Below are positions 3,044-23,462 of a stretch of DNA of 23,462 bases, in pieces. The notes under the pieces were generated by a model, which saw nothing but the letters and a program-made list of their open reading frames with translations, was not told where the DNA came from and did not search any database. Numbering within the stretch: position 1 is the stretch's first letter; the number at the start of each line of letters is the position of its first letter. Source of the stretch: a virus (lineage: Duplodnaviria > Heunggongvirae > Uroviricota > Caudoviricetes); the IMG/VR virus record IMGVR_UViG_2617270947_000006; one strand, written 5' to 3'. The position numbers were made by a program, and so were the translations under genes.

Positions 3044-3650
3044 TCTCTGGTCCTCCCGTTTTGCTGCCTTCACCGTTATCGTGATGCACATGACCTGAAT
3101 AGGTGATCCCGGCAATAACCGCTTCGGACATCGTGAACGTCCCCTGTGATCTTCCGGTGCCGTCAATGGACACATTGCCTTTGACATGCAGGTTCTTATC
3201 CACTGTGACATTACCGGTAAAGTGAGCCTCCGGTGTATCCACCTGAACACCTTCATCGGCGTAAATCTCCAGCGTCTTACAGGTCACAATGATCCGGCCG
3301 TTCTTTGTCAGACGTATACGGTGCCCCTCATGGTGATACACGCCGGTATCTCCGGCGGTAAGTCCGGTCGGGCGACTGCGGCGGTCTTCCACCACAAGCA
3401 CCACGGCCTGATCCCGTTGTCCGCCAGCACAGGCCAGAAAAACTTCCGCACCAGGCAGGGGGACGCTGATTTGCCCGTACTGCTGGGGGCGTTCAACGTC
3501 ATCAAAGGTTTCACCATCCATACCGGTGATTTGCACATTCTGGATTTTCAGCGTGTCCGTTGTGCCGGTCAGTACACCACGCCCGAACAGCAGACGAACA
3601 CCCCGCATCACGGGGGCCAGAAGGCGGCTGATGACTTCGTCATTCATCAT
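3036..3650 (-). CDS. Baseplate assembly protein V-like / tail spike-hub (Mu gp45-like), 204 aa
   Basis: Size and position after the gpP-like gene. Confidence 0.75.
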   Translation of the reverse strand: MMNDEVISRLLAPVMRGVRLLFGRGVLTGTTDTLKIQNVQITGMDGETFDDVERPQQYGQISVPLPGAEVFLACAGGQRDQAVVLVVEDRRSRPTGLTAGDTGVYHHEGHRIRLTKNGRIIVTCKTLEIYADEGVQVDTPEAHFTGNVTVDKNLHVKGNVSIDGTGRSQGTFTMSEAVIAGITYSGHVHHDNGEGSKTGGPENG

Positions 3651-4764
3651 TGAATTTAATCCCCTGTTTTTTCATCTGTGCCCGCACGAAGGCGTCCACG
3701 TCACCCGCATTTCCGCTTCCGCTGTTTCCCGGCTCTGCCGGAACAATAAAGCCGTCACGGGGTGCCAGAATCAGACGGGTGGTTTCGCCGTGATTTGCAT
3801 CCAGCGAAAACTCCACCTGACAGACAAGAAGATCACGCTCTTCCACTCCGGTGCGGGGAGCCGTGACAGCCGTCAGCAGGTTGATATCCCACAACTGGCC
3901 GTTCTCCCGAAACCAGTGCCGCACGGTGGCTGTCAGGCGCACAGAGCGGGCAACCGCCCGGCGCATTTCCCGGACAGCCCTCTGGCGTGCACCGTCTGCA
4001 TCAACAGCATGATCCGCCAGCACAATTTTCGGTCTGTAACGGTGGATGGCACTGTCTGTCACCGTACCAACGGGTGCGGCCAGCGTTCCGGCTGTCAGTG
4101 CATCCCCGGCATGACCACCACCACGCCCGTGCCCCCGTACACGGTATTCACTGTGGCGCAGACGGTGATCCACGTTGTGATCCAAATCCAGCAGATTTTC
4201 GCCCAGCGTCAGCGTGTCGCCACGCTGACTGCCGGCCTGAGTGAAAACCAGTTCACCGGCGGCATTACTGGTTACCAGGACGCCTCTGTGTCTCGCGGCC
4301 CGTGTCAGCGCATCTGCCACGGTTTCTGAGTTTTCCAGTGTGAAGGTGGAAAAGTGCCGGGCTGCCGTTGCATCATTTACCTGCCAGCGCACCGTGACCC
4401 CGAACGGAGCACACAAATCTGAAGCAATGTGCTCCAGCGTGCGGTTCCTCCACTGGCTGCCCGGATGAATGGCTGAACAGTCCACCAGGTCACCGGTTTT
4501 ATCCCGTCCGCTGAGCGTGATCTGAAAACGCGTGGCGCTGATGCGCTGCCGGACCTGATCCAGCCAGCCAGTGATCACAGGCTGACCGTCAATGCGCAAT
4601 TCCAGAGACTGACCGGCACGGACGGATGACGGAAGGCGTACACCGGGCATCATTACCCCCAGTTCAAAGGAGCCCGCCAGATGTTCAAGAGAGCGACGAA
4701 CACTCACCGTCAGCCAGCCGGAAAAAATCTCACCGCCCAGATACAGTTCAACCCTGCTGCTCAC
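3640..4764 (-). CDS. Mu gpP-like tail protein (P2 gpD-like), 374 aa
   Basis: Size (Mu P is about 379 aa) and position after the N-like gene; overlaps neighbours at both ends. Confidence 0.8.
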   Translation of the reverse strand: MSSRVELYLGGEIFSGWLTVSVRRSLEHLAGSFELGVMMPGVRLPSSVRAGQSLELRIDGQPVITGWLDQVRQRISATRFQITLSGRDKTGDLVDCSAIHPGSQWRNRTLEHIASDLCAPFGVTVRWQVNDATAARHFSTFTLENSETVADALTRAARHRGVLVTSNAAGELVFTQAGSQRGDTLTLGENLLDLDHNVDHRLRHSEYRVRGHGRGGGHAGDALTAGTLAAPVGTVTDSAIHRYRPKIVLADHAVDADGARQRAVREMRRAVARSVRLTATVRHWFRENGQLWDINLLTAVTAPRTGVEERDLLVCQVEFSLDANHGETTRLILAPRDGFIVPAEPGNSGSGNAGDVDAFVRAQMKKQGIKFNDE

Positions 4765-10934: not shown

Positions 10935-11498
10935 TTATTCCTCTGACAGTCCGGCGTTTTCACCGGCGGCAGTTGCACCAGGCAGACGGATGTGTGCCTT
11001 AAATTCCGGCGTGCCTTCCGGTTCGGTAAAGGTTTCGTAATGGCGCAGGAAATCATCCAGCGAGCTGATATCCGTCAGCGGGTCGATCATTTCCTCGCAT
11101 GAGAAATACAGGGCGTACATCACGGCACCGCTGCCTGCCTGCGTTTCGGTGTAACCGTTGACCGCCTTTTCAAAGTAAAGCGGTGAGGTTTTTTCTGCTC
11201 TGAAGCCGTCCAGCACGGTAATCAGGCGGGCCACAATCTGATAAAGCCCGGGACGGCTGACCTCACGGCCATTGAGCATGTCGCCGATGACGTAGAACAC
11301 CCAGTGACTGACCAGACGCCCACGGGTACGCCCTTCACCGGCACCCAGCCAGGCAACATAGATAGCCGGGGCGTTAATCAGCATGGTGCGCAGCACGCTG
11401 TCGCTCCAGTCGCCGGGATGTGTGTCAACAGACACCAGTTCATTCCCGAAATACTCACGAATACGGGTGATATATGCCTGTTCGGTTTCCGTAATCAT
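10935..11498 (-). CDS. Mu gp37-like head-tail connector/completion protein, 187 aa
   Basis: Synteny and size. Confidence 0.65.
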   Translation of the reverse strand: MITETEQAYITRIREYFGNELVSVDTHPGDWSDSVLRTMLINAPAIYVAWLGAGEGRTRGRLVSHWVFYVIGDMLNGREVSRPGLYQIVARLITVLDGFRAEKTSPLYFEKAVNGYTETQAGSGAVMYALYFSCEEMIDPLTDISSLDDFLRHYETFTEPEGTPEFKAHIRLPGATAAGENAGLSEE

Positions 11499-11914
11499 AT
11501 AAAGCCCTTCTGGTTGCGCCCGAACACCGCCGCATCAGACTGCACCTGCGGTAAATCCCCGGATTCAGGGGCCGCACCGTCTGTATCCACGCCGACCGGC
11601 ACGTTACCGTTCATGACATCTTTCAGCCAGGCCAGCGCCTCACGGTAACGGTCACGCGCCTGATCGGATGCCCGCTGATCGCACAGGTAATAAAAGGCAA
11701 TCGTGCAGCAATGCTGAACAAGGACCGCCGGAACCACCGCCAGCGGCAGCGTGTAACGGGAAGACAGATAGCTGTCGATAAGGGCAGACGCGTCCGTCAG
11801 TGCCCGGTTCAGCTTGCGCGTGTCCGGTTCATCCGAACGGGGCACGGCCAGTAATGGCCTGAGCAAATCCTCGCGGTAACGTGCCCGCATATCGGTTTCG
11901 GTGGCGTAATTCAT
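11495..11914 (-). CDS. Mu gp36-like head-tail joining protein, 139 aa
   Basis: Synteny and size; ATGA-type overlaps with both neighbours. Confidence 0.65.
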   Translation of the reverse strand: MNYATETDMRARYREDLLRPLLAVPRSDEPDTRKLNRALTDASALIDSYLSSRYTLPLAVVPAVLVQHCCTIAFYYLCDQRASDQARDRYREALAWLKDVMNGNVPVGVDTDGAAPESGDLPQVQSDAAVFGRNQKGFI

Positions 11915-12270
11915 GCGCGCGCCTTTTTCGCCTGTCTGGCGTTATTGCCGGTCTTTTTCCGGGGAGCATCCTGTACGGTTTCGGCTTCGGCTAAATCTGC
12001 ACCGGTCTCTGCATGAACCACATCCGCCACGGCTCCCGCATCATCACCAGGCGTCTGTAGTATTCGTACAGTGAGGCATGGCTCCGCTTCCAGTCGGGCA
12101 AGCTGCTCCGGGGTGACGTCAACCTGCTGGCGTCCCCGCATGAACAGGAACCCCGCACGACGAAAATGCGTACGACTGCAACGCACTTCTGCCAGTACCG
12201 TGACAGGACTGTCACCACTGACCTGAAGGCCTGAATCATCTGTTGCTGCCACAGTGTGATGTTCATTCAT
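11911..12270 (-). CDS. Mu gp35-like hypothetical head protein, 119 aa
   Basis: ATG 12268-12270 preceded by GGAGGG 6 nt upstream; first gene after the hairpin that follows the major head gene. Confidence 0.55.
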   Translation of the reverse strand: MNEHHTVAATDDSGLQVSGDSPVTVLAEVRCSRTHFRRAGFLFMRGRQQVDVTPEQLARLEAEPCLTVRILQTPGDDAGAVADVVHAETGADLAEAETVQDAPRKKTGNNARQAKKARA

Positions 12271-12287
12271 ATTTGCCCTCCGCAGGG

Positions 12288-12306
12288 GCCGGGCCGTAAG
12301 CCCGGC
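12288..12306 (-). other. GC-rich stem-loop immediately 3' of the major head gene; candidate partial terminator or mRNA-stabilising hairpin
   Basis: Perfect 7-bp inverted repeat GCCGGGC (12288-12294) / GCCCGGC (12300-12306) with a CGTAA loop, in the 43-nt gap between the T stop and the next start. It is not followed by a U-tract on the minus-strand transcript. Confidence 0.4.
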
Positions 12307-12313
12307 TCACCGT

Positions 12314-13261
12314 TTACAGATAATCCGCGACAACCAGCTCCAGCTTGCCCTTCATCTCGTTAGAGACTGTGGCGTTACCGTCTGCGAACAGCTCGCGCTC
12401 CAGCAGCTGCACCGCCTGTTTTTCCAGCGAGGTGGGGACAACAATATGGGTGGGTTTGATGCCGAGTTTGCGGCCACCGTCAGCCTTAAAGTCACGCATG
12501 GCTGACCAGCCGTGCCACAGCGCATCCAGCGTCAGCGGTGACTGCATCATGTAGGCCATCTGCCAGAAGCCGTAGCCCACATTGCGACGGGCGGAAGCAC
12601 CGAACACAAACTCGTTATCAGTAAACGCACGGCCTTCATCGACTTTTGTCTGGGCAACCAGTTCGGCTTTGCGGCGATCCTGATAAATCAGCGGTTTTAC
12701 CGCGCGGGAGCAGTCAAGCAGATACCAGGCCGGGCCGCTGTAATCCGCCTGTGCACCGACAGAGCCGGTTTTTGCCACAAACATATTGCTGACCATCTGT
12801 GCATCACCGGAGCCATCCACTTTGGGGTAAACAGGGTGTTCGGTATCAAAGAAGTTCTGGCCGTCATAGCAGGCCGCATTCAGACCATCACGCAGTGCAG
12901 CAAAGACCAGTTCATCCGGTTGTGCCGCAGCGGCACGACCCATTTCCTGGAATAACGGGGAGTAGATGCCGAGATTGTCGTCTTCAAAGTCATCGCGGCT
13001 AATGGCAACGGTGCCTTCAAAGGTTTTGTTCACGATGGCGTAGCCATAGGCTTTCATCTTCTCGATGACGCGGGAGCCGATCCACTCACGGAACTGCGGG
13101 AACTGCCCCAGCCAGCCGTAGGTGTTGGATTTCGAGGTGGACGGCACGGTCATCGCAATTTTCTGGTACTGCGACGGAGCCATGGACATCCCGGCCTGAA
13201 AATCAGAACGGTAGCCCGTCATCAGGGCGGTGATCATCGCCGGTGTAATCGGGGTAGGCAT
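12314..13261 (-). CDS. Major head (capsid) subunit (Mu gpT-like), 315 aa
   Basis: Size (Mu T is about 305 aa) and position directly after the protease/scaffold gene; TAATG stop/start overlap with the upstream gene. Confidence 0.9.
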   Translation of the reverse strand: MPTPITPAMITALMTGYRSDFQAGMSMAPSQYQKIAMTVPSTSKSNTYGWLGQFPQFREWIGSRVIEKMKAYGYAIVNKTFEGTVAISRDDFEDDNLGIYSPLFQEMGRAAAAQPDELVFAALRDGLNAACYDGQNFFDTEHPVYPKVDGSGDAQMVSNMFVAKTGSVGAQADYSGPAWYLLDCSRAVKPLIYQDRRKAELVAQTKVDEGRAFTDNEFVFGASARRNVGYGFWQMAYMMQSPLTLDALWHGWSAMRDFKADGGRKLGIKPTHIVVPTSLEKQAVQLLERELFADGNATVSNEMKGKLELVVADYL

Positions 13262-14394
13262 TATTGCATTTCCTCTTTCATTTTCAGGAACTCGGCTTCG
13301 GTTTTACCCAACAGACGTGCGGCGGCGATATCTTCAGCCGACAGCACAGCGGTGGCGGTCTTTTTATCCGGCACGGTTACGGTGTCGGTCTGAAGAGTGG
13401 TCAGAGCCGCAACCGGCTGGCGGGCGTCAAGCTGTGCAGAAAGTGCCGCGACGCCAATCTGTTGTCCGAGTCCTTCCATGTATCCGCGTTCGCTTTTGAA
13501 AATGCGTCCTTCGGACTCGGCCTTATCCAGCAACTGCTCCAGCGTGGTGCTGCCGTGTTGTGCCGACAGCGCGGCATATTCGGTACGCAGGGCGTTATAC
13601 GTCTCAACGGGCACATATTTCGTCAGATCAATAGTGCCGCCAGTTGGTGTGCCTTTTGCGGTTTCCAGTTCTGCCGACAGGCTGGCAACCTGCGTTTTCA
13701 GGGTGTCGTGCGCATCCGCACGGGTTTTGATCCCGGTAAGGGCAGACAGCGCCGCCGTGCCCAGTTCCGGTGTAAATTCGTCACCGTCAGCCACGGTCAG
13801 ACCGAGCGCCGTCAGCAACTGGCGTAATTGCTCATTCATGGGGGATTGCTCCTGAGAAGGGGAAACGACATAGAGATCATCAGCACTGAGTGCCGCGACA
13901 GGGTTCATACCCGTAATACCCGGATCATTCGTCAGGGAAGCCATGCGCAACAGGTAGGGTTCCCCGGTGTCAGCGAAATAATGCATATATGCAGACAGAT
14001 AGGCATATTCACGGTCATCAATATGTTTTTGTGCCTGTGGTGTCCATTCAGGTTTAATGAAAATCCCCTGACCCTCACGCCATTCGATGTTTTCCGGCTT
14101 AACCCATCCTGCAGCAATAGCCTTGAATCCGTTTTTCTGCGCATTCACGGAGTGATGGTCATAATCAATCAGTAACGGCTGATGCAGGGCGGAAAGCCCG
14201 GCTTTCATCCGGTTACAGGCGGATTCGTTAATCAGCCAGCCTTCAGTCGGTTTTTCCGGGCGACCGTCACGGGCCTTTACCCGACCGGCTGGCAGTAACT
14301 GACACCATCCGTCGCCGGATGCAGTCAGCGAAGCTGAAAGCACGGCTAAACCGGAGGGGCGATTTGCGTCTTTTGGGTGATTTTCTGTCTTCAT
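13261..14394 (-). CDS. Head maturation protease/scaffold (Mu gpI-like), 377 aa
   Basis: Size (Mu I is about 361 aa) and position between the G-like and T-like genes; preceded by the 177-bp G-I gap. Confidence 0.85.
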   Translation of the reverse strand: MKTENHPKDANRPSGLAVLSASLTASGDGWCQLLPAGRVKARDGRPEKPTEGWLINESACNRMKAGLSALHQPLLIDYDHHSVNAQKNGFKAIAAGWVKPENIEWREGQGIFIKPEWTPQAQKHIDDREYAYLSAYMHYFADTGEPYLLRMASLTNDPGITGMNPVAALSADDLYVVSPSQEQSPMNEQLRQLLTALGLTVADGDEFTPELGTAALSALTGIKTRADAHDTLKTQVASLSAELETAKGTPTGGTIDLTKYVPVETYNALRTEYAALSAQHGSTTLEQLLDKAESEGRIFKSERGYMEGLGQQIGVAALSAQLDARQPVAALTTLQTDTVTVPDKKTATAVLSAEDIAAARLLGKTEAEFLKMKEEMQ

Positions 14395-15045: not shown

Positions 15046-15166
15046 ATTGCCTCCGCATAAAGGATGAATATAAAATAAACAGGCGGTCAGTGTACGCTTA
15101 ACTGGTAAAGTCGGTGCCTGCCTCCGGGTGGATCATGTATGCGGGTTCGCCCCCCGCCACTGACCG

Positions 15167-18080: not shown

Positions 18081-19735
18081 CCCCGATCAAATTCATGATA
18101 TGCCTCATCGTCATCACGATAACCGCCCTCCATTGCCCGCGACCGCTCCGGCAGCGCCTGACAGGCTGATTCATCCAGGATGAAACCCTCCATGTATGAC
18201 GCCCGGTTTGCCATACAGAGTGCCACGGCAAAATCACCATGGCGGCGGGCGTTCGCAGCCGTTGCGTTCTGGTCCTTCGTGCGCCCCTTGTCGATTTGCG
18301 GGATACCATTCACCACCTTCACATGGCGCAAATCATCAAGCGTGGTCTGATGGCGGGCGACGAGGATATTCTGATCTTCAAACTCGGCTTTCAGTTTTGG
18401 CATCCACTCGCCGTACCACTTCGGCGACAACATCACGCAGTCGATGATGTCCGGGCCAAAGGCCAGCAGTGCGGCCTCTGCCAGATAGCCGCCGTTACCG
18501 GTGGCGTCGAACGCCGCACCGACCAGCGCCGGAACGCGGGTCAGGATGTACATCATCACCTGTTCCTGCTGGGCATACGGCAGGTTGCGCAGCTCCACGC
18601 GAAACACCTCGCGCTTTGCCAGGAGTTCGGTGATTTCCAGCAGCACAAAGCAGGACAGGTCACCGGTGCGGGCAAAGTCTTCCCCGAAGCTGAAGCGGGA
18701 ACGGGGATTTAATTTCTCTAAAAGCGGTTTTAAATGTTCTTCACACCAGGTTAAAACTTCCGATTCACGCAGCCATGCGGCACGGCTGATGAAGTCGTCC
18801 GGGGCTTCAAACGTCAGAATCGGGATGTCACGAATCATCGCCATTTCAATAAGCGCGTGAGGAATATAGGCACCGCCGGATTTTTTCGGGATACAGCCGT
18901 ATTCCTCGTCGGCATCCTCACGGGTCGGGGCGTTTTTGTAGAGATCATCACGCCATTTCTGCTCGCTTTCCGGTGACCATTCCTGATCGGTGACGTAACA
19001 GATACGACGGTACAGCCCGTCCGCAATGGCATCATCCAGGGTTATGCGGTGGACGCTGTAATCCTTGCGCCCCTCGCGGGCTTCCTGAATGTACTGATTA
19101 AACAGATTATCGACGCCGTTATGCGTGGAAATAATGCGCACGCGTGCGCCCCACATAGTGAGCGCCATTGCCGCCTTGAGAAGCTCATCCAGTGACTCGT
19201 GGAACGCGGCTTCATCAATCACCACATCCCCCTGAAGACCGCGCAGGTTTGACGGACGGGAAGACAATGCCTGAATTTTGAATCCACTGTTCGGAAAGCG
19301 GATCATGTAGGTCAGAATTTCTTCTTTTTTATCCCGATCCCAGAATGTCTGCTCATACACATCAGCATCTGCCAGCTGGTTAAAGGCACGGGAGAACAGC
19401 GCGCAGGCAGAAATATATTCCAGCGCCATCTCCTGTTTTGACCCCACATAAAACACATTACGGCCACCACGACGCTTAGGCTTTGCGGCGGTAATGACGT
19501 TACGCCCGGCTTCCGCCCAGGTAAGCCCGGTGCGTCGGGATTTCTCCGCGATGCAGACCTGACTTTCATCTGCAAACCAGCGGGCCTGATAATCCAGAAA
19601 CACCGGCATATCACCGGGCAAATCAAGGCTGTCCGGCACATCCACGCCCAGCAGGGCTTTTTCACCGGACAGATCAATTTTGCGGGGAGGTGTCATTTGT
19701 ATCAGTGAAGGAGACTTTTCTTTGGCTTTGTTCAT
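18071..19735 (-). CDS. Terminase large subunit (Mu gp28-like), 554 aa
   Basis: Size and position upstream of the portal gene; ATG 19733-19735 overlaps the stop of the preceding small gene (ATGA). Confidence 0.9.
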   Translation of the reverse strand: MNKAKEKSPSLIQMTPPRKIDLSGEKALLGVDVPDSLDLPGDMPVFLDYQARWFADESQVCIAEKSRRTGLTWAEAGRNVITAAKPKRRGGRNVFYVGSKQEMALEYISACALFSRAFNQLADADVYEQTFWDRDKKEEILTYMIRFPNSGFKIQALSSRPSNLRGLQGDVVIDEAAFHESLDELLKAAMALTMWGARVRIISTHNGVDNLFNQYIQEAREGRKDYSVHRITLDDAIADGLYRRICYVTDQEWSPESEQKWRDDLYKNAPTREDADEEYGCIPKKSGGAYIPHALIEMAMIRDIPILTFEAPDDFISRAAWLRESEVLTWCEEHLKPLLEKLNPRSRFSFGEDFARTGDLSCFVLLEITELLAKREVFRVELRNLPYAQQEQVMMYILTRVPALVGAAFDATGNGGYLAEAALLAFGPDIIDCVMLSPKWYGEWMPKLKAEFEDQNILVARHQTTLDDLRHVKVVNGIPQIDKGRTKDQNATAANARRHGDFAVALCMANRASYMEGFILDESACQALPERSRAMEGGYRDDDEAYHEFDRGCW

Positions 19736-19983
19736 CAGGCTTTACCTGTCAGAATGCTTTTGATTCGGAACTCAAGCTCTTCAGTCATCACGTCCACGCC
19801 ACTCAACTCATCAGTGACAGCCCCTGCCAGCAGCGAATGCAGTTGTTCCAGGGATATTTCCCCGGCAATGCTGAGTTCAGTCAACTCACGACACGCTTTT
19901 ATGGTTTCAGGAGGTAACTGTGTTGCAAGACTGAATGCCTTCTGATGAGCACTACTCATCAGTGAGCGGTTATCTGTTACCAC
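19735..19983 (-). CDS. Small protein (82 aa) whose C-terminus is paralogous to the small-terminase C-terminal tail; possible terminase accessory factor
   Basis: GTG start at 19981-19983 preceded by AGGAGGTGA; stop overlaps the TerL ATG. C-terminus LAGAVTDELSGVDVMTEELEFRIKSILTGKA aligns with ANAVTDELRGVDGMSEQIEFRIRQMLLGKA at the end of the upstream 193-aa protein. Confidence 0.6.
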   Translation of the reverse strand: MVTDNRSLMSSAHQKAFSLATQLPPETIKACRELTELSIAGEISLEQLHSLLAGAVTDELSGVDVMTEELEFRIKSILTGKA

Positions 19984-19993
19984 GATTCACCTC

Positions 19994-20575
19994 CTACGCC
20001 TTACCAAGCAGCATCTGCCTGATACGGAATTCTATCTGCTCGCTCATGCCATCCACGCCGCGCAACTCGTCGGTGACGGCGTTCGCCATCTCTTCAGCAA
20101 ATGCGGCCCGGATTTCTTTTTCACGCTTAATGCTGCGCTCGGCGGCACTTTCCGCACGCTGTGCCGACAGGAGGATGTCCTTAATAAGGCGCATATCCAC
20201 ATCGCTGTCGCTGTTCAGGGATTCGGTGGCGGCACGCAGACGGCGGTACATCAGGGCACGGGACATCTCCAGAATCAGTGCCGTGGTTTCACCGGTCGGC
20301 TTATCCCCCAGTTCGGCCATCATGGCTTTTGTCTGCTCGCGTAAATCACGCAGATTACGGGCAATCAGCTCATTACGGGAGGCTTCCCGGCTGATGGCCG
20401 CCGGTGAAAGCTGCTGCTCTTCCGGCAGGCCTGCCTCACGGATCAGACGGTTGATTTCCTCGCGGATCTGGACCTGCGTCAGGCGTTTTTCACGCAGCAT
20501 TTCCAGCAGCGGCTTACGGATGCTGTCGGGGAGCAAATCCACCTTGCGTACACGGCCACGCGTCGGCTTATCCAT
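19994..20575 (-). CDS. Terminase small subunit / DNA-binding packaging protein (Mu gp27-like), 193 aa
   Basis: Charged, helical protein directly upstream of TerL. Confidence 0.75.
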   Translation of the reverse strand: MDKPTRGRVRKVDLLPDSIRKPLLEMLREKRLTQVQIREEINRLIREAGLPEEQQLSPAAISREASRNELIARNLRDLREQTKAMMAELGDKPTGETTALILEMSRALMYRRLRAATESLNSDSDVDMRLIKDILLSAQRAESAAERSIKREKEIRAAFAEEMANAVTDELRGVDGMSEQIEFRIRQMLLGKA

Positions 20576-20577
20576 CG

Positions 20578-20868
20578 TTACCCCCTTGCGCGTGGTTTCT
20601 TCACACCCGGAACAGTGGCACGACCTTCCGCCACATCCTGACCCCGGCCGGTCAGTTCAGCGATGAAATAACCGTTAACAAGCGTGCGCTTACGCACCAG
20701 TCCCTGCTCAGCAAGCCAGGCAATGTGGGTGTGAACGGTGTCGCGGGACACGCGGTGGCCGTAATCATCCAGGCAGTCCTGAAGCACGGATTCGCCCAGT
20801 TCGCCGTTGTAATCCGCCAGCGACCGCAGAATGACAAGACGCTGATCTTCAGTAATGAAATCACTCAT
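20578..20868 (-). CDS. Mu gp26-like small protein, 96 aa
   Basis: Synteny between the lysis-associated genes and the small terminase. Confidence 0.55.
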   Translation of the reverse strand: MSDFITEDQRLVILRSLADYNGELGESVLQDCLDDYGHRVSRDTVHTHIAWLAEQGLVRKRTLVNGYFIAELTGRGQDVAEGRATVPGVKKPRARG

Positions 20869-21172
20869 TGTGTTTTTTCCTTACAGCCTGCTCCAGCAGC
20901 AGTTCGTTCTGGTGGGAGACGGATTTCAGGGTGGCATTGGTGGCCTTAAGCTCACCGCGCAGGGTGGTGATTTCGATATTGAGTCTGTTCACCTCCTGCT
21001 GCGTGGGCAGGCCGGAAATCCTGCTCTCCACCCGCTCAACCCGGTCGGAGAGTTTTTCAAAGGCCTCGCGGGGGACAAAGGTTTTGCGCATCAGCGCCAT
21101 AAAGATCCCCCCGGCCGTGGCTGTTGCCGACAGGATCGGCACGACATAATCTTTAACGATGCTGACCCACAT
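20861..21172 (-). CDS. Membrane-anchored coiled-coil protein (Mu gp25-like; candidate releasin/holin-like lysis factor), 103 aa
   Basis: ATG 21170-21172 preceded by GGAGG. One N-terminal hydrophobic segment (VVPILSATATAGGIFMALM) followed by a coiled-coil-like region; sits in the lysis-cassette position. Confidence 0.6.
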   Translation of the reverse strand: MWVSIVKDYVVPILSATATAGGIFMALMRKTFVPREAFEKLSDRVERVESRISGLPTQQEVNRLNIEITTLRGELKATNATLKSVSHQNELLLEQAVRKKHNE

Positions 21173-22131: not shown

Positions 22132-23462
22132 CATAAGCGCTAACTTAAGGGTTGAACCATCTGAAGAATGCGACGCCTCGGTGCCTCGTTAAGACGATGC
22201 CTCGCGTTCTTCAATTGCGTTTTGTAGGCTGTCAGGGATACTGTCCCACGAATGGCCACCTGTAAGCTCCAGATGACCATTTTTGTTATTCTCCACAACG
22301 AGTTAGTTCTTCTTTTCGGATCCGGCACTTCTGGGGGGGAAATCCAGCGATGGCTGGATTATGTCGTCAATTAAAAATGCGGCGAGTAGATTAGCAAATA
22401 TCCACGCTTTCGCGAGTTCAGGTTCCTTTGCACGCAAAGCATCCAGGTGCAGCAAACTTTTGAGCCGCTTAAAAGCCAGTTCAATTTGCCATCGCAGACG
22501 GTAACAATCAGCCACTTGCTCTGCTGAATATTCATCTTCCGGTAATGATGTTAGCAATAACACATGGCCCGCTGCTTCCAGCGTTTCCGCCTGAACTACT
22601 CGTCCTTTTCGACGATTCTCGCTGAGCAGTCGGGTTTTACTGATTAATGCTTTTTCGGGAGGAAGTGATACGGCAATGAGACGTGCCGGAAAGGGAGCTC
22701 CGGCTTTTTTATTACCTGAATTGCCTATCATTACAGTGGTTTCACCGTTCTTACCGCAATCCAGCCCGCGCAGAAAACCCATCATGTCAAAGCGCATTCC
22801 TTCTGCAGTTAACCAGCGCAATCCTCGCCAGTGAACCCGGACGATATAATCAGCTTCTCCAAAAGCAAGTGAGCGGATACATTCGGGACGCGAACCGAAT
22901 CCCCGGTCAGCAATGCGTATCTCGTCTGCCGTTTGCGCAAATCGGTCCAGCCGTTCAGCGTCTCTGCTGTCGGTTAGCTCAAAATCAGTGAACTGACAGG
23001 TATGAGGATCATATCCCATATGTAGTCGCCATTCAGCGCTGCCGCCCCCGGGCGCACTGATTGCTGTTCCATCGACAAGACGCAATCTCTTTCCGCTTGT
23101 ACAACCCGTAACTGCGGCGCGTACAGCAAGTGTTTGTGCGGCAAGTATGCCAAACCAGTCGGCGGCATTCCGCAGCCGCTTCAGGAGAGCCACGTCAGAT
23201 AATGTTGCAACGTCATGGAGCTGAGCCCATGCAGTGACTTCACGTAATGACATCCCCCCGGGGCCGTAAGCCAGCCCCAGACGTAGCAGAGTTGCAGCAT
23301 CACGAATTTCGCGGCGGCGGGTTAGAGCCCCGGCATTACGTGCCGAAGTATCCAGTTCTTCGGGCTTACCAATATGGGCCAGAATTGCTGACCAGTTATC
23401 GTGAGAGTAATTCATCGGCACGTTAAATCATATCAGGCGTAATACCACAACCCTTAAGTTAG
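22132..23462 (-). mobile_element. IS186-type insertion sequence (IS4 family), truncated by the window end
   Basis: Terminal sequence CATAAGCGCTAACTTAAGGGTTG at 22132-22154; its 15-nt core (22141-22155) is mirrored by CAACCCTTAAGTTAG at 23448-23462 at the window edge. Encodes one 370-aa DDE transposase with the IS4-family Y-x2-R-x3-E-x6-K signature. About 8 bp of the right inverted repeat should lie beyond the window. Confidence 0.85.
22303..23415 (-). CDS. insL: IS186 transposase (IS4 family DDE), 370 aa
   Basis: The translation MNYSHDNWSAILAHIGKPEEL...DCYRLRWQIELAFKRLK matches IS186 InsL of E. coli as I recall it. Start placed at ATG 23413-23415; the track start is a GTG two codons upstream. 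Confidence 0.8.
   Translation of the reverse strand: MNYSHDNWSAILAHIGKPEELDTSARNAGALTRRREIRDAATLLRLGLAYGPGGMSLREVTAWAQLHDVATLSDVALLKRLRNAADWFGILAAQTLAVRAAVTGCTSGKRLRLVDGTAISAPGGGSAEWRLHMGYDPHTCQFTDFELTDSRDAERLDRFAQTADEIRIADRGFGSRPECIRSLAFGEADYIVRVHWRGLRWLTAEGMRFDMMGFLRGLDCGKNGETTVMIGNSGNKKAGAPFPARLIAVSLPPEKALISKTRLLSENRRKGRVVQAETLEAAGHVLLLTSLPEDEYSAEQVADCYRLRWQIELAFKRLKSLLHLDALRAKEPELAKAWIFANLLAAFLIDDIIQPSLDFPPRSAGSEKKN

Follow-up and report, generated by a model that had tools for sequence, protein, structure and literature searches.

The window analysed here, 23,462 nt of DNA from the IMG/VR virus record IMGVR_UViG_2617270947_000006, represents the late region of a Mu-like Escherichia coli prophage with its genes on the minus strand, and we examined an 82-codon open reading frame (ORF) that lies in it between the genes for the small (TerS) and large (TerL) terminase subunits. 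The genes follow one another in the order TraR/DksA-like, DUF2730, VpaChn25_0724-family (gp26-like), TerS, the 82-codon ORF, TerL, Mu portal, and MuF. In phage Mu, gp28 comes directly after gp27; TerS of the window is 57% identical to Mu gp27, and TerL occupies the position equivalent to Mu gp28. TerL returned no Pfam or NCBIfam match at all and was recognised by PHROG 2 only. The family of the 82-codon ORF is already catalogued without a function: PHROG 30922 matched the ORF from end to end (residues 1-82 of 82, E=7.6e-57), and in relatives the NCBI Prokaryotic Genome Annotation Pipeline (PGAP) calls it a hypothetical protein. A search of the literature found nothing on the ORF or on the C-terminus of gp27.

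An initial annotation of this DNA had described a small gene between TerS and TerL with a strong Shine-Dalgarno (SD) sequence and a stop codon overlapping the TerL ATG. The gene is indeed there (Table 1), and its SD, AGGAGG, is on par with that of TerS: the predicted SD:anti-SD pairing energy (dG) was -11.5 kcal/mol for the ORF and -11.8 kcal/mol for TerS, with only -3.8 kcal/mol for TerL. The ORF starts 10 nt past the TerS stop TAG, with GTG in the window and ATG at the same position in relatives. Its stop also overlaps the TerL start, although not as the ATGA that had been quoted: TGA and ATG share a single base, at position 19735, to give TGATG. Two other ways of reading this stretch were rejected. 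A read-through or frameshift fusion of TerS to the ORF was discarded because the ORF lies in another frame, 10 nt after the TAG and behind its own SD, with no sign of recoding, and the plus-strand ORFs at 19690-19917, 19754-19945, and 19935-20666 are antisense shadows of well-supported minus-strand genes.

Table 1. Features of the TerS/TerL junction in the window
Feature	Position	Strand	Basis or remark
Small terminase TerS, Mu gp27 family, 193 aa	19994..20575	-	Pfam PF11985, E=3e-33 over residues 12-193; PHROG 426 'terminase small subunit', E=9e-55
Tail 1, genuine TerS C-terminal module, codons 163-193, MANAVTDELRGVDGMSEQIEFRIRQMLLGKA	19997..20089	-	conserved across the gp27 family
SD AGGAGG of the 82-codon ORF	19990..19995	-	overlaps the TerS stop TAG (19994-19996); 6 nt upstream of the ORF start
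82-codon chimeric ORF	19735..19983	-	ORF listing; PHROG 30922, function unknown
N-terminal orphan module, codons 1-52, three helices predicted	19828..19983	-	unrelated to TerS (hhalign)
Tail 2, degenerate second copy of the TerS tail, codons 53-82, AGAVTDELSGVDVMTEELEFRIKSILTGKA	19738..19827	-	BLASTP E=1e-12 vs tail 1
TerL start and variable first 17 TerL codons	19685..19735	-	TGATG overlap; weak SD; low identity to relatives
Large terminase TerL, 554 aa	18071..19735	-	PHROG 2 'terminase large subunit', E=6e-43

The claim that the last ~30 residues of the ORF are homologous to those of TerS stood up to a formal alignment. Residues 52-82 of the ORF and 163-193 of TerS were identical at 20 of 31 positions (BLASTP of the pair, E=1e-12), the PHROG profile of the ORF matched TerS residues 162-193 (E=6e-8), and the ORF tail also matched Mu gp27 (E=5e-9). 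The last 30 residues were 65% identical to the resident TerS and 57% identical to Mu gp27. When the ORF family was aligned with 54 distinct gp27 sequences by hhalign, only residues 53-82 aligned, with residues 164-193, in agreement with the earlier statement that the N-terminal ~50 residues are unrelated to TerS. The ORF had no Pfam match at E<=0.1, and a full-length match to PF11985 (Phage_Mu_Gp27) was obtained for the neighbouring 193-aa TerS and not for the ORF. At the DNA level the two tails shared 61 of 93 positions (65.6%), with a longest identical run of 8 nt, as expected from the proposal that this is not a recent tandem duplication. The differences fell mostly at third codon positions (7/6/19 by position), from which we conclude that during most of this divergence tail 2 served a diverged lineage as a functional TerS tail, rather than drifting as a redundant duplicate.

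The N-terminal module has hardly any relatives. A word-indexed search of 5.8 billion proteins with the first 52 residues gave only E. coli copies of at least 79% identity, and an exhaustive profile search of 1.84 billion representative proteins added only a 67-aa protein, P0012, and two frameshifted copies; two further matches were repeat proteins and were judged spurious. Tail-less P0012 aside, these 1.84 billion representatives contained no homologue of the module beyond this prophage group. The 52 residues had no match in Pfam, NCBIfam, or PADLOC; among defence families, PADLOC gave no match for the complete ORF or for P0012, and NCBIfam gave none for the ORF. An AlphaFold2 (AF2) model of the ORF was of moderate quality (predicted local distance difference test score, pLDDT, 70.5) and contained four helices, of which those of the N-terminal part spanned residues 5-22, 25-39, and 45-60 at pLDDT 75-85. 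The best hit of this model in a Foldseek search of the PDB had E=1.5.

To place the ORF among its relatives, we surveyed about 150 related loci (79 from IMG/VR and 72 from GTDB genomes) and 5426 complete E. coli genomes for a gene between gp27 and gp28, a survey that found the ORF as a rare allele and unrelated small genes in the same slot. The terminase region of the window was present in 231 records among the complete E. coli genomes, and in about 208 of them, including the O157:H7 Sp18-type prophage, it was exactly 259 nt shorter, with TerS directly coupled to TerL; the 82-codon ORF is thus missing from ~90% of the closest prophages, Sp18 among them. The N-terminal part of the ORF occurred in 25 of the 5426 genomes, the ORF itself was found in 0 of 50,697 deposited phage records, and none of the other surveyed loci carried a second tail copy. 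Sp18, which has no such ORF, has been predicted to be intact (PMC2669165). We regard the ORF as dispensable because it is rare among carriers of the region, occurs in no deposited phage record, and is lacking in the predicted-intact Sp18. As a separate observation, the N-terminal part of the ORF was present at three places in E. coli JE86-ST05 (NZ_AP022815.1) and at two in JE86-ST02 (NZ_AP022811.1), a sign that the long-form Mu-like prophage may exist there in several copies or have transposed recently; one prophage copy interrupts the gene for the citrate lyase alpha subunit.

Three alleles of the junction were found: the empty one of the O157 Sp18 type, the ORF with a second tail seen in the window, and a tail-less 67-aa gene in locus L005 (a Logan contig from SRR34397675). 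In L005 the same slot and the same SD are followed by the gene for P0012, the first ~55 residues of which are homologous to the ORF; over the junction (4001-4324) this gene, which has no TerS tail, is succeeded by a 119-nt gap and then by a TerL with a different N-terminus. Locus L016 (IMG/VR UViG_2654587996_000001, 3580-3622) carries a deletion derivative of the L005-type junction that has kept the strong SD, now in front of a mini-ORF of 9 codons (MATDWFSYE*) whose stop overlaps the TerL ATG by 8 nt. The SD and first codons of the 82-codon ORF are therefore present in L005 and L016 as well, and to judge from its sequence the L016 deletion seems to have re-created translational coupling to TerL. 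Public data also contain frameshifted copies and small in-frame deletions at the module junction (P0002, P0003, P0010, P0011). On the opposite strand of the L005 gap we noted a 39-codon ORF (MMLQTQLELLERYLSGTFRQLTFAWKKRSLIALCFSPAG) preceded by GGAGAG, possibly a small antisense gene.

Comparison of these alleles segment by segment indicated that the variable stretch is set between nearly constant flanks. TerS codons 1-162 and TerL codons 18-200 were 96-98% identical in all forms. Between them, the 3' half of tail 1 with the SD was 96-100% identical to L005 and L016 and 63%, a background value, to O157; codons 1-35 of the ORF were 79% identical to L005 at the DNA level; and the 3' half of tail 2 was 79% identical to the O157-type TerS tail. 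The first 17 TerL codons were 62-65% identical to relatives, which is background for this alignment, against 96-97% for codons 18-200. From these segment identities, the ORF combines an L005-like left side with an O157-like right side, consisting of tail and TerL start, joined in frame. The 259-nt difference between the long and short forms is in register, and the short O157 tail begins like tail 1 and ends like tail 2. The O157 form was nevertheless rejected as a simple deletion by tail-tail recombination: its 3' half and TerL 5' end were 65-79% identical to the window where the flanks reached 96%, as for a separate old allele. Together, these data bear out the suggestion that the ORF is the footprint of a mosaic recombination joint, with an L005-like 5' part and an O157-like 3' part inside flanks of 96-98% identity.

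We then asked how the ORF has evolved, using nine distinct long-form variants. The pairwise ratio of non-synonymous to synonymous substitution rates (dN/dS) was mostly 0.4-0.6 for the ORF (range 0.10-1.60, with the extremes coming from pairs that differ very little); the same comparison gave 0.00-0.05 for TerS and 0.05-0.07 for TerL. Variable sites were spread over the codon positions as 12/14/20 in the ORF, 1/2/44 in TerS, and 12/9/73 in TerL (ORF vs TerS, Fisher p=1e-7). A parsimony count over the ORF gave 20 synonymous and 38 non-synonymous changes, where a neutral simulation expects 16.8 +/- 3.4 synonymous ones (P=0.21), and the chance of finding zero stop codons under neutrality was 0.17. 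The substitution pattern of the whole ORF is indistinguishable from neutral. The two tails of the same prophages served as an internal control: tail 1 varied at 1/1/13 sites by codon position, with two protein variants, and tail 2 at 4/5/6, with five (p=0.02), one of which has a Leu-to-Pro change in the terminal helix. In tail 2, A164, I185, and G191 are retained, whereas G176 is replaced by V and L190 by T; neither replacement occurs at its position in 54 distinct TerS sequences, so that tail 2 lacks the full invariant set of the gp27 family. A hidden Markov model of the tail scored 20-31 bits on the ORF tail, compared with 54 bits on genuine TerS tails. Read together, the sequences point to a copied tail that is decaying and is not maintained as a genuine tail.

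Among 77 distinct gp27-family junctions, 59 have a TerS stop that overlaps the TerL start or lies directly against it. Junctions with inserted small genes nearly always repeat this arrangement between the last insert and TerL; L005 is the exception. The spacing from the last ORF to TerL was -4 nt in L153, -8 in L104 and in L016, and +5 in L077 and L156. The TGATG overlap, together with the weak SD of the downstream gene, gives the ORF/TerL pair the sequence hallmarks of a translationally coupled pair, and at that level the coupling proposed in the initial annotation was upheld. No sigma-70-like promoter was detected in 19500-20900, and a scan for terminators gave two matches, one within TerL (minus strand, 19603-19617) and one within TerS (plus strand, 20315-20327), a number covered by the shuffle expectation of 1.4 +/- 1.2. 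Since there was no promoter-like site and the terminator-like matches were at chance level, the scan gives no evidence for an independent transcription unit. TerL, whose own SD is weak, is most likely supplied with ribosomes by the ORF before it, here the 82-codon one.

The TerS/TerL junction is a recurrent insertion slot in Mu-like prophages. Six loci from Vibrio, Enterovibrio, and Oceanospirillum (L073, L077, L078, L152, L156, L157) have a 63-68-aa helical protein encoded between TerS and TerL, followed in some by a 43-aa hydrophobic peptide, and an Endozoicomonas locus (L153) has an 84-aa gene there. These inserted genes begin at a TAATG that overlaps the TerS stop, and most of them end right at the TerL start or no more than 5 nt from it. 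In an uncultured Shewanella sp. (L104, 3541-3630), the last 8 TerS codons and the stop are present as a 30-nt tandem triplication (KREILGIA*V x3), after which comes a gene for a 118-aa predicted membrane protein whose stop codon runs into the TerL start; the repeat is single in L105 and L110. Here, independently, a short stretch of the TerS 3' end has been duplicated in the equivalent junction.

The survey also indicated how the tail behaves in genuine TerS proteins of the family. In tail 1 and its counterparts A164, G176, I185, and G191 are invariant, and L190 is present in 53 of 54 sequences. Across the surveyed loci there are two tail types, ending in LLGKA or ILGIA; the GKA type occurred with a 'PRKIDL'-type TerL in 17 of 18 unique cases and the GIA type with the other TerL type in 58 of 58. 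Between L049 and L075 the TerS bodies were 97% identical, the tails 33%, and TerL 48%, and in the opposite direction the window type and L049 shared only 32% of the TerS body but 76% of the tail and 66% of TerL. Natural domain swaps of this kind (L049 vs L075/L079 and L096 vs L112/L114) combined bodies of 93-97% identity with tails of 33% and TerL of 48-52%, and the break-point fell just past the family-invariant EKEIRAAFA motif of TerS. The gp27-family tail thus appears, by these comparisons, to be an exchangeable unit inherited together with TerL instead of with the TerS body, although the tail adjoins TerL and linkage alone could also give this co-segregation.

In lambda (gpNu1) and P22 (gp3), a flexible C-terminal element of TerS binds the N-terminus of TerL (PMC9611059). 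The Mu-like tail and TerL are likewise exchanged together, with a variable segment made up of the 3' half of the tail and the first ~17 TerL codons, which fits the same logic, but the lambda and P22 elements have no sequence relationship to gp27 tails. The genuine TerS tail is presumably a TerL-docking element, and the premise that small-terminase tails contact the large subunit therefore gains indirect support from the co-segregation of tail and TerL types and from the lambda and P22 data. No gp27 relative with a solved structure was found. The AF2 model of TerS was poor (pLDDT 54, from a shallow alignment) and was used for secondary structure only; in it a long helix ends within the tail and is followed by a loop (173-178) with the invariant Gly and by a terminal helix (179-189). 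The ORF tail is modelled with the same layout of long-helix end, loop, and short terminal helix, a resemblance limited by the low confidence of the TerS model. We consider this modularity of tail and TerL a more useful result than the ORF itself: it predicts, in concrete and testable form, where TerS and TerL of Mu-like phages would meet, a contact with no structure and scarcely any biochemistry behind it.

Given these observations, we think it fairly probable that the 82-codon ORF is a chimeric, lineage-restricted, and dispensable gene that now serves, most likely, to hand translational coupling on to TerL. It would have arisen at the TerS/TerL junction when two diverged Mu-like phages recombined out of register. 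The left part, comprising the SD and codons 1 to ~52-55, would derive from a small orphan gene downstream of a TerS allele ending in IEFRIRQMLLGKA and then TAG, the same orphan gene that also exists tail-less as the 67-aa gene. The right part, of 30 codons, would be the 3' end of the small-terminase gene of another lineage and would have arrived together with the TerL 5' end, already translationally coupled to that tail. The ORF would then be translated from its strong SD, and termination at TGATG would pass ribosomes to the SD-poor TerL start, a start that in most relatives would be fed by TerS translation itself. The peptide would be dispensable and drifting, with any TerL binding residual, and the frame has probably been kept open because ribosomes must cross the ORF to reach TerL. 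Being rare (~0.5% of complete E. coli genomes), dispensable, and without detectable constraint on its protein sequence, the ORF matters little as a gene. It is of interest as a dated and dissectable case of phage mosaicism making new ORFs, in which an orphan module has been fused in frame to the end of an essential gene: a tidy example of mosaicism and no new packaging factor.

Several points weigh against this interpretation. The ORF is open in all nine distinct variants, with ATG or GTG at the same position, 20-22 of 30 positions of its tail still fit the family motif, and dN/dS of the tail (0.2-0.45) is lower than that of the N-terminal module (0.5-0.7), all of which makes a weakly selected protein function possible. 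The sample behind the constraint tests is small, at 58 substitution events, and recombination among variants can distort parsimony counts. Translation of the ORF and its coupling to TerL are read from the sequence, and in L005 TerL lies 119 nt from the preceding stop, which means that coupling is not obligatory in the group. The alleles at hand do not fix the direction of the event, since the orphan gene may have captured the tail or L005 may have lost it, and among the TerS sequences searched no donor with exactly tail 2 was found.

Of the alternatives, the one that survives best, while still unlikely, is that the 82-aa protein is a functional packaging accessory whose tail docks on TerL at the site of the TerS tail, the three-helix module acting as a competitor, timer, or TerL chaperone that is possibly assembled co-translationally, since it is made just before TerL from the same mRNA. 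The significant tail homology, the retention of most motif positions (A164, I185, and G191 and the amphipathic helix included), the strong SD and tight coupling of the ORF to TerL, the predicted helices of the N-terminal module (pLDDT 75-85), and the open frame in every variant are all compatible with such a role, as are the co-segregation of tail and TerL types in the family and the binding of the TerL N-terminus by TerS C-termini in lambda and P22 (PMC9611059). Against it, two residues that are invariant in TerS tails are replaced (G176V and L190T) and one variant has a Pro in the terminal helix, and the flat codon-position pattern of the ORF and its counts, indistinguishable from neutral, stand beside strong purifying selection on tail 1 in the same genomes. 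Most of the closest prophages and all the isolated phage genomes searched also do without the ORF, the L005 allele carries the N-terminal module with no tail, and a protein competing stoichiometrically with TerS for TerL should be detrimental to packaging. The TerL-binding accessory or competitor that the initial annotation had offered thus found no positive support, with two invariant residues lost, no detectable codon-level constraint, and ~90% of the closest prophages doing without it; on the sequences compared, the mosaic joint that it had offered alongside appears the better supported of the two. A more specific version, which we hold to be rather improbable, sees in the ORF a phage-encoded 'decoy tail', a TerL-docking peptide joined to a new three-helix domain that would occupy the TerL N-terminus ahead of TerS. 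Were this true, the protein would tune or gate packaging initiation or shield TerL from hijacking, and G176V and L190T would be adaptive changes and not decay.

At the other extreme, the ORF might be an untranslated or functionally irrelevant recombination scar, with TerL using its own weak ribosome-binding site. The statistically neutral substitution pattern, the still appreciable probability of an open frame under neutrality (0.17), the frameshifted and in-frame-deleted versions in public data, and the 119 nt that separate TerL from the preceding stop in L005 could all be accounted for in this way. We judge it improbable: AGGAGG at a 6-nt spacing is as strong an SD as that of TerS, the ATG/GTG start is kept at one position, and even in L016 the SD persists to drive the 9-codon ORF that overlaps the TerL ATG. 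The TerL SD, moreover, is weak, and a sequence with such features will be translated whenever the late mRNA is made. Finally, an in-place tandem duplication of the resident TerS 3' end, with the N-terminal 52 codons as a frame-shifted or heavily diverged TerS copy, is very improbable: the tails are in register exactly 259 nt apart and the Shewanella locus L104 does show a small tandem triplication of the TerS 3' end, but the N-terminal module has no profile-level similarity to TerS and occurs tail-less in L005, the 3' half of tail 2, like the start of TerL next to it, looks like another allele (O157 type, 79%) rather than like the resident tail 1, and the mainly synonymous tail differences (7/6/19) speak for separate lives as working TerS tails.

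The chimeric relay gene that we favour resembles several known systems in part. With the C-terminal module of Mu gp27 (PF11985, Phage_Mu_Gp27/DUF3486) it shares the homologous last 30 residues, the helix-loop-helix layout noted above (subject to the low-confidence TerS model, pLDDT 54), and a tail that directly abuts the TerL start, as is usual for genuine tails. It differs from gp27 in having no N-terminal DNA-binding region, long central helices, or EKEIRAAFA motif, and in the two replaced tail residues. The 'moron'-like junction inserts of other Mu-like prophages are independent small ORFs in the same slot, most of them spliced into the coupling chain, and in the surveyed loci none contains a copy of the TerS tail. 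Like a moron, the 82-codon ORF comes and goes between near-identical flanks, being present in 25 and absent from about 205 of the E. coli genomes with this terminase region; unlike classical morons it shows no flanking promoter and terminator of its own, the scan having given no promoter-like site and terminator-like matches at chance level only. Ppi of SaPI and Rpp of PICI elements are small, satellite-encoded packaging-interference proteins that bind TerS and not TerL, whereas the 82-codon ORF belongs to the phage's own late operon. In herpesviruses, pUL33 is a small third terminase subunit (PMC9611059). All three are small and act by binding a terminase subunit, and the ORF product would be alike if its tail still binds TerL, but none has sequence similarity to it in any library searched.

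Elsewhere in the window we noted damage to the prophage itself. Homology to its closest intact-looking relative, the prophage of E. coli AST198, ends at 22132, inside the endolysin gene, and the remaining segment (22133-23462) contains an IS4-family transposase gene at 22303-23421 on the minus strand (NCBIfam NF033592, Pfam DDE_Tnp_1); the lysozyme gene of the window prophage appears to be truncated by this insertion sequence element. Over the region corresponding to window positions 11364-14227, compared with L091, AST198, the nearest relative with a complete genome, has lost most of the protease/scaffold and major-head region, which is intact in the window, and PGAP marks both genes of AST198 as partial. 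With the lysozyme gene truncated in one and the head region lost in the other, each of these near-identical prophages has a defect of its own. PGAP reports a 'tRNA-OTHER' in L091 (16132-16211) and L164 (15257-15336), in the gap that separates MuF from the virion-morphogenesis gene and corresponds to about 15050-15165 of the window, where scans of the window with ARAGORN and Rfam gave no match.

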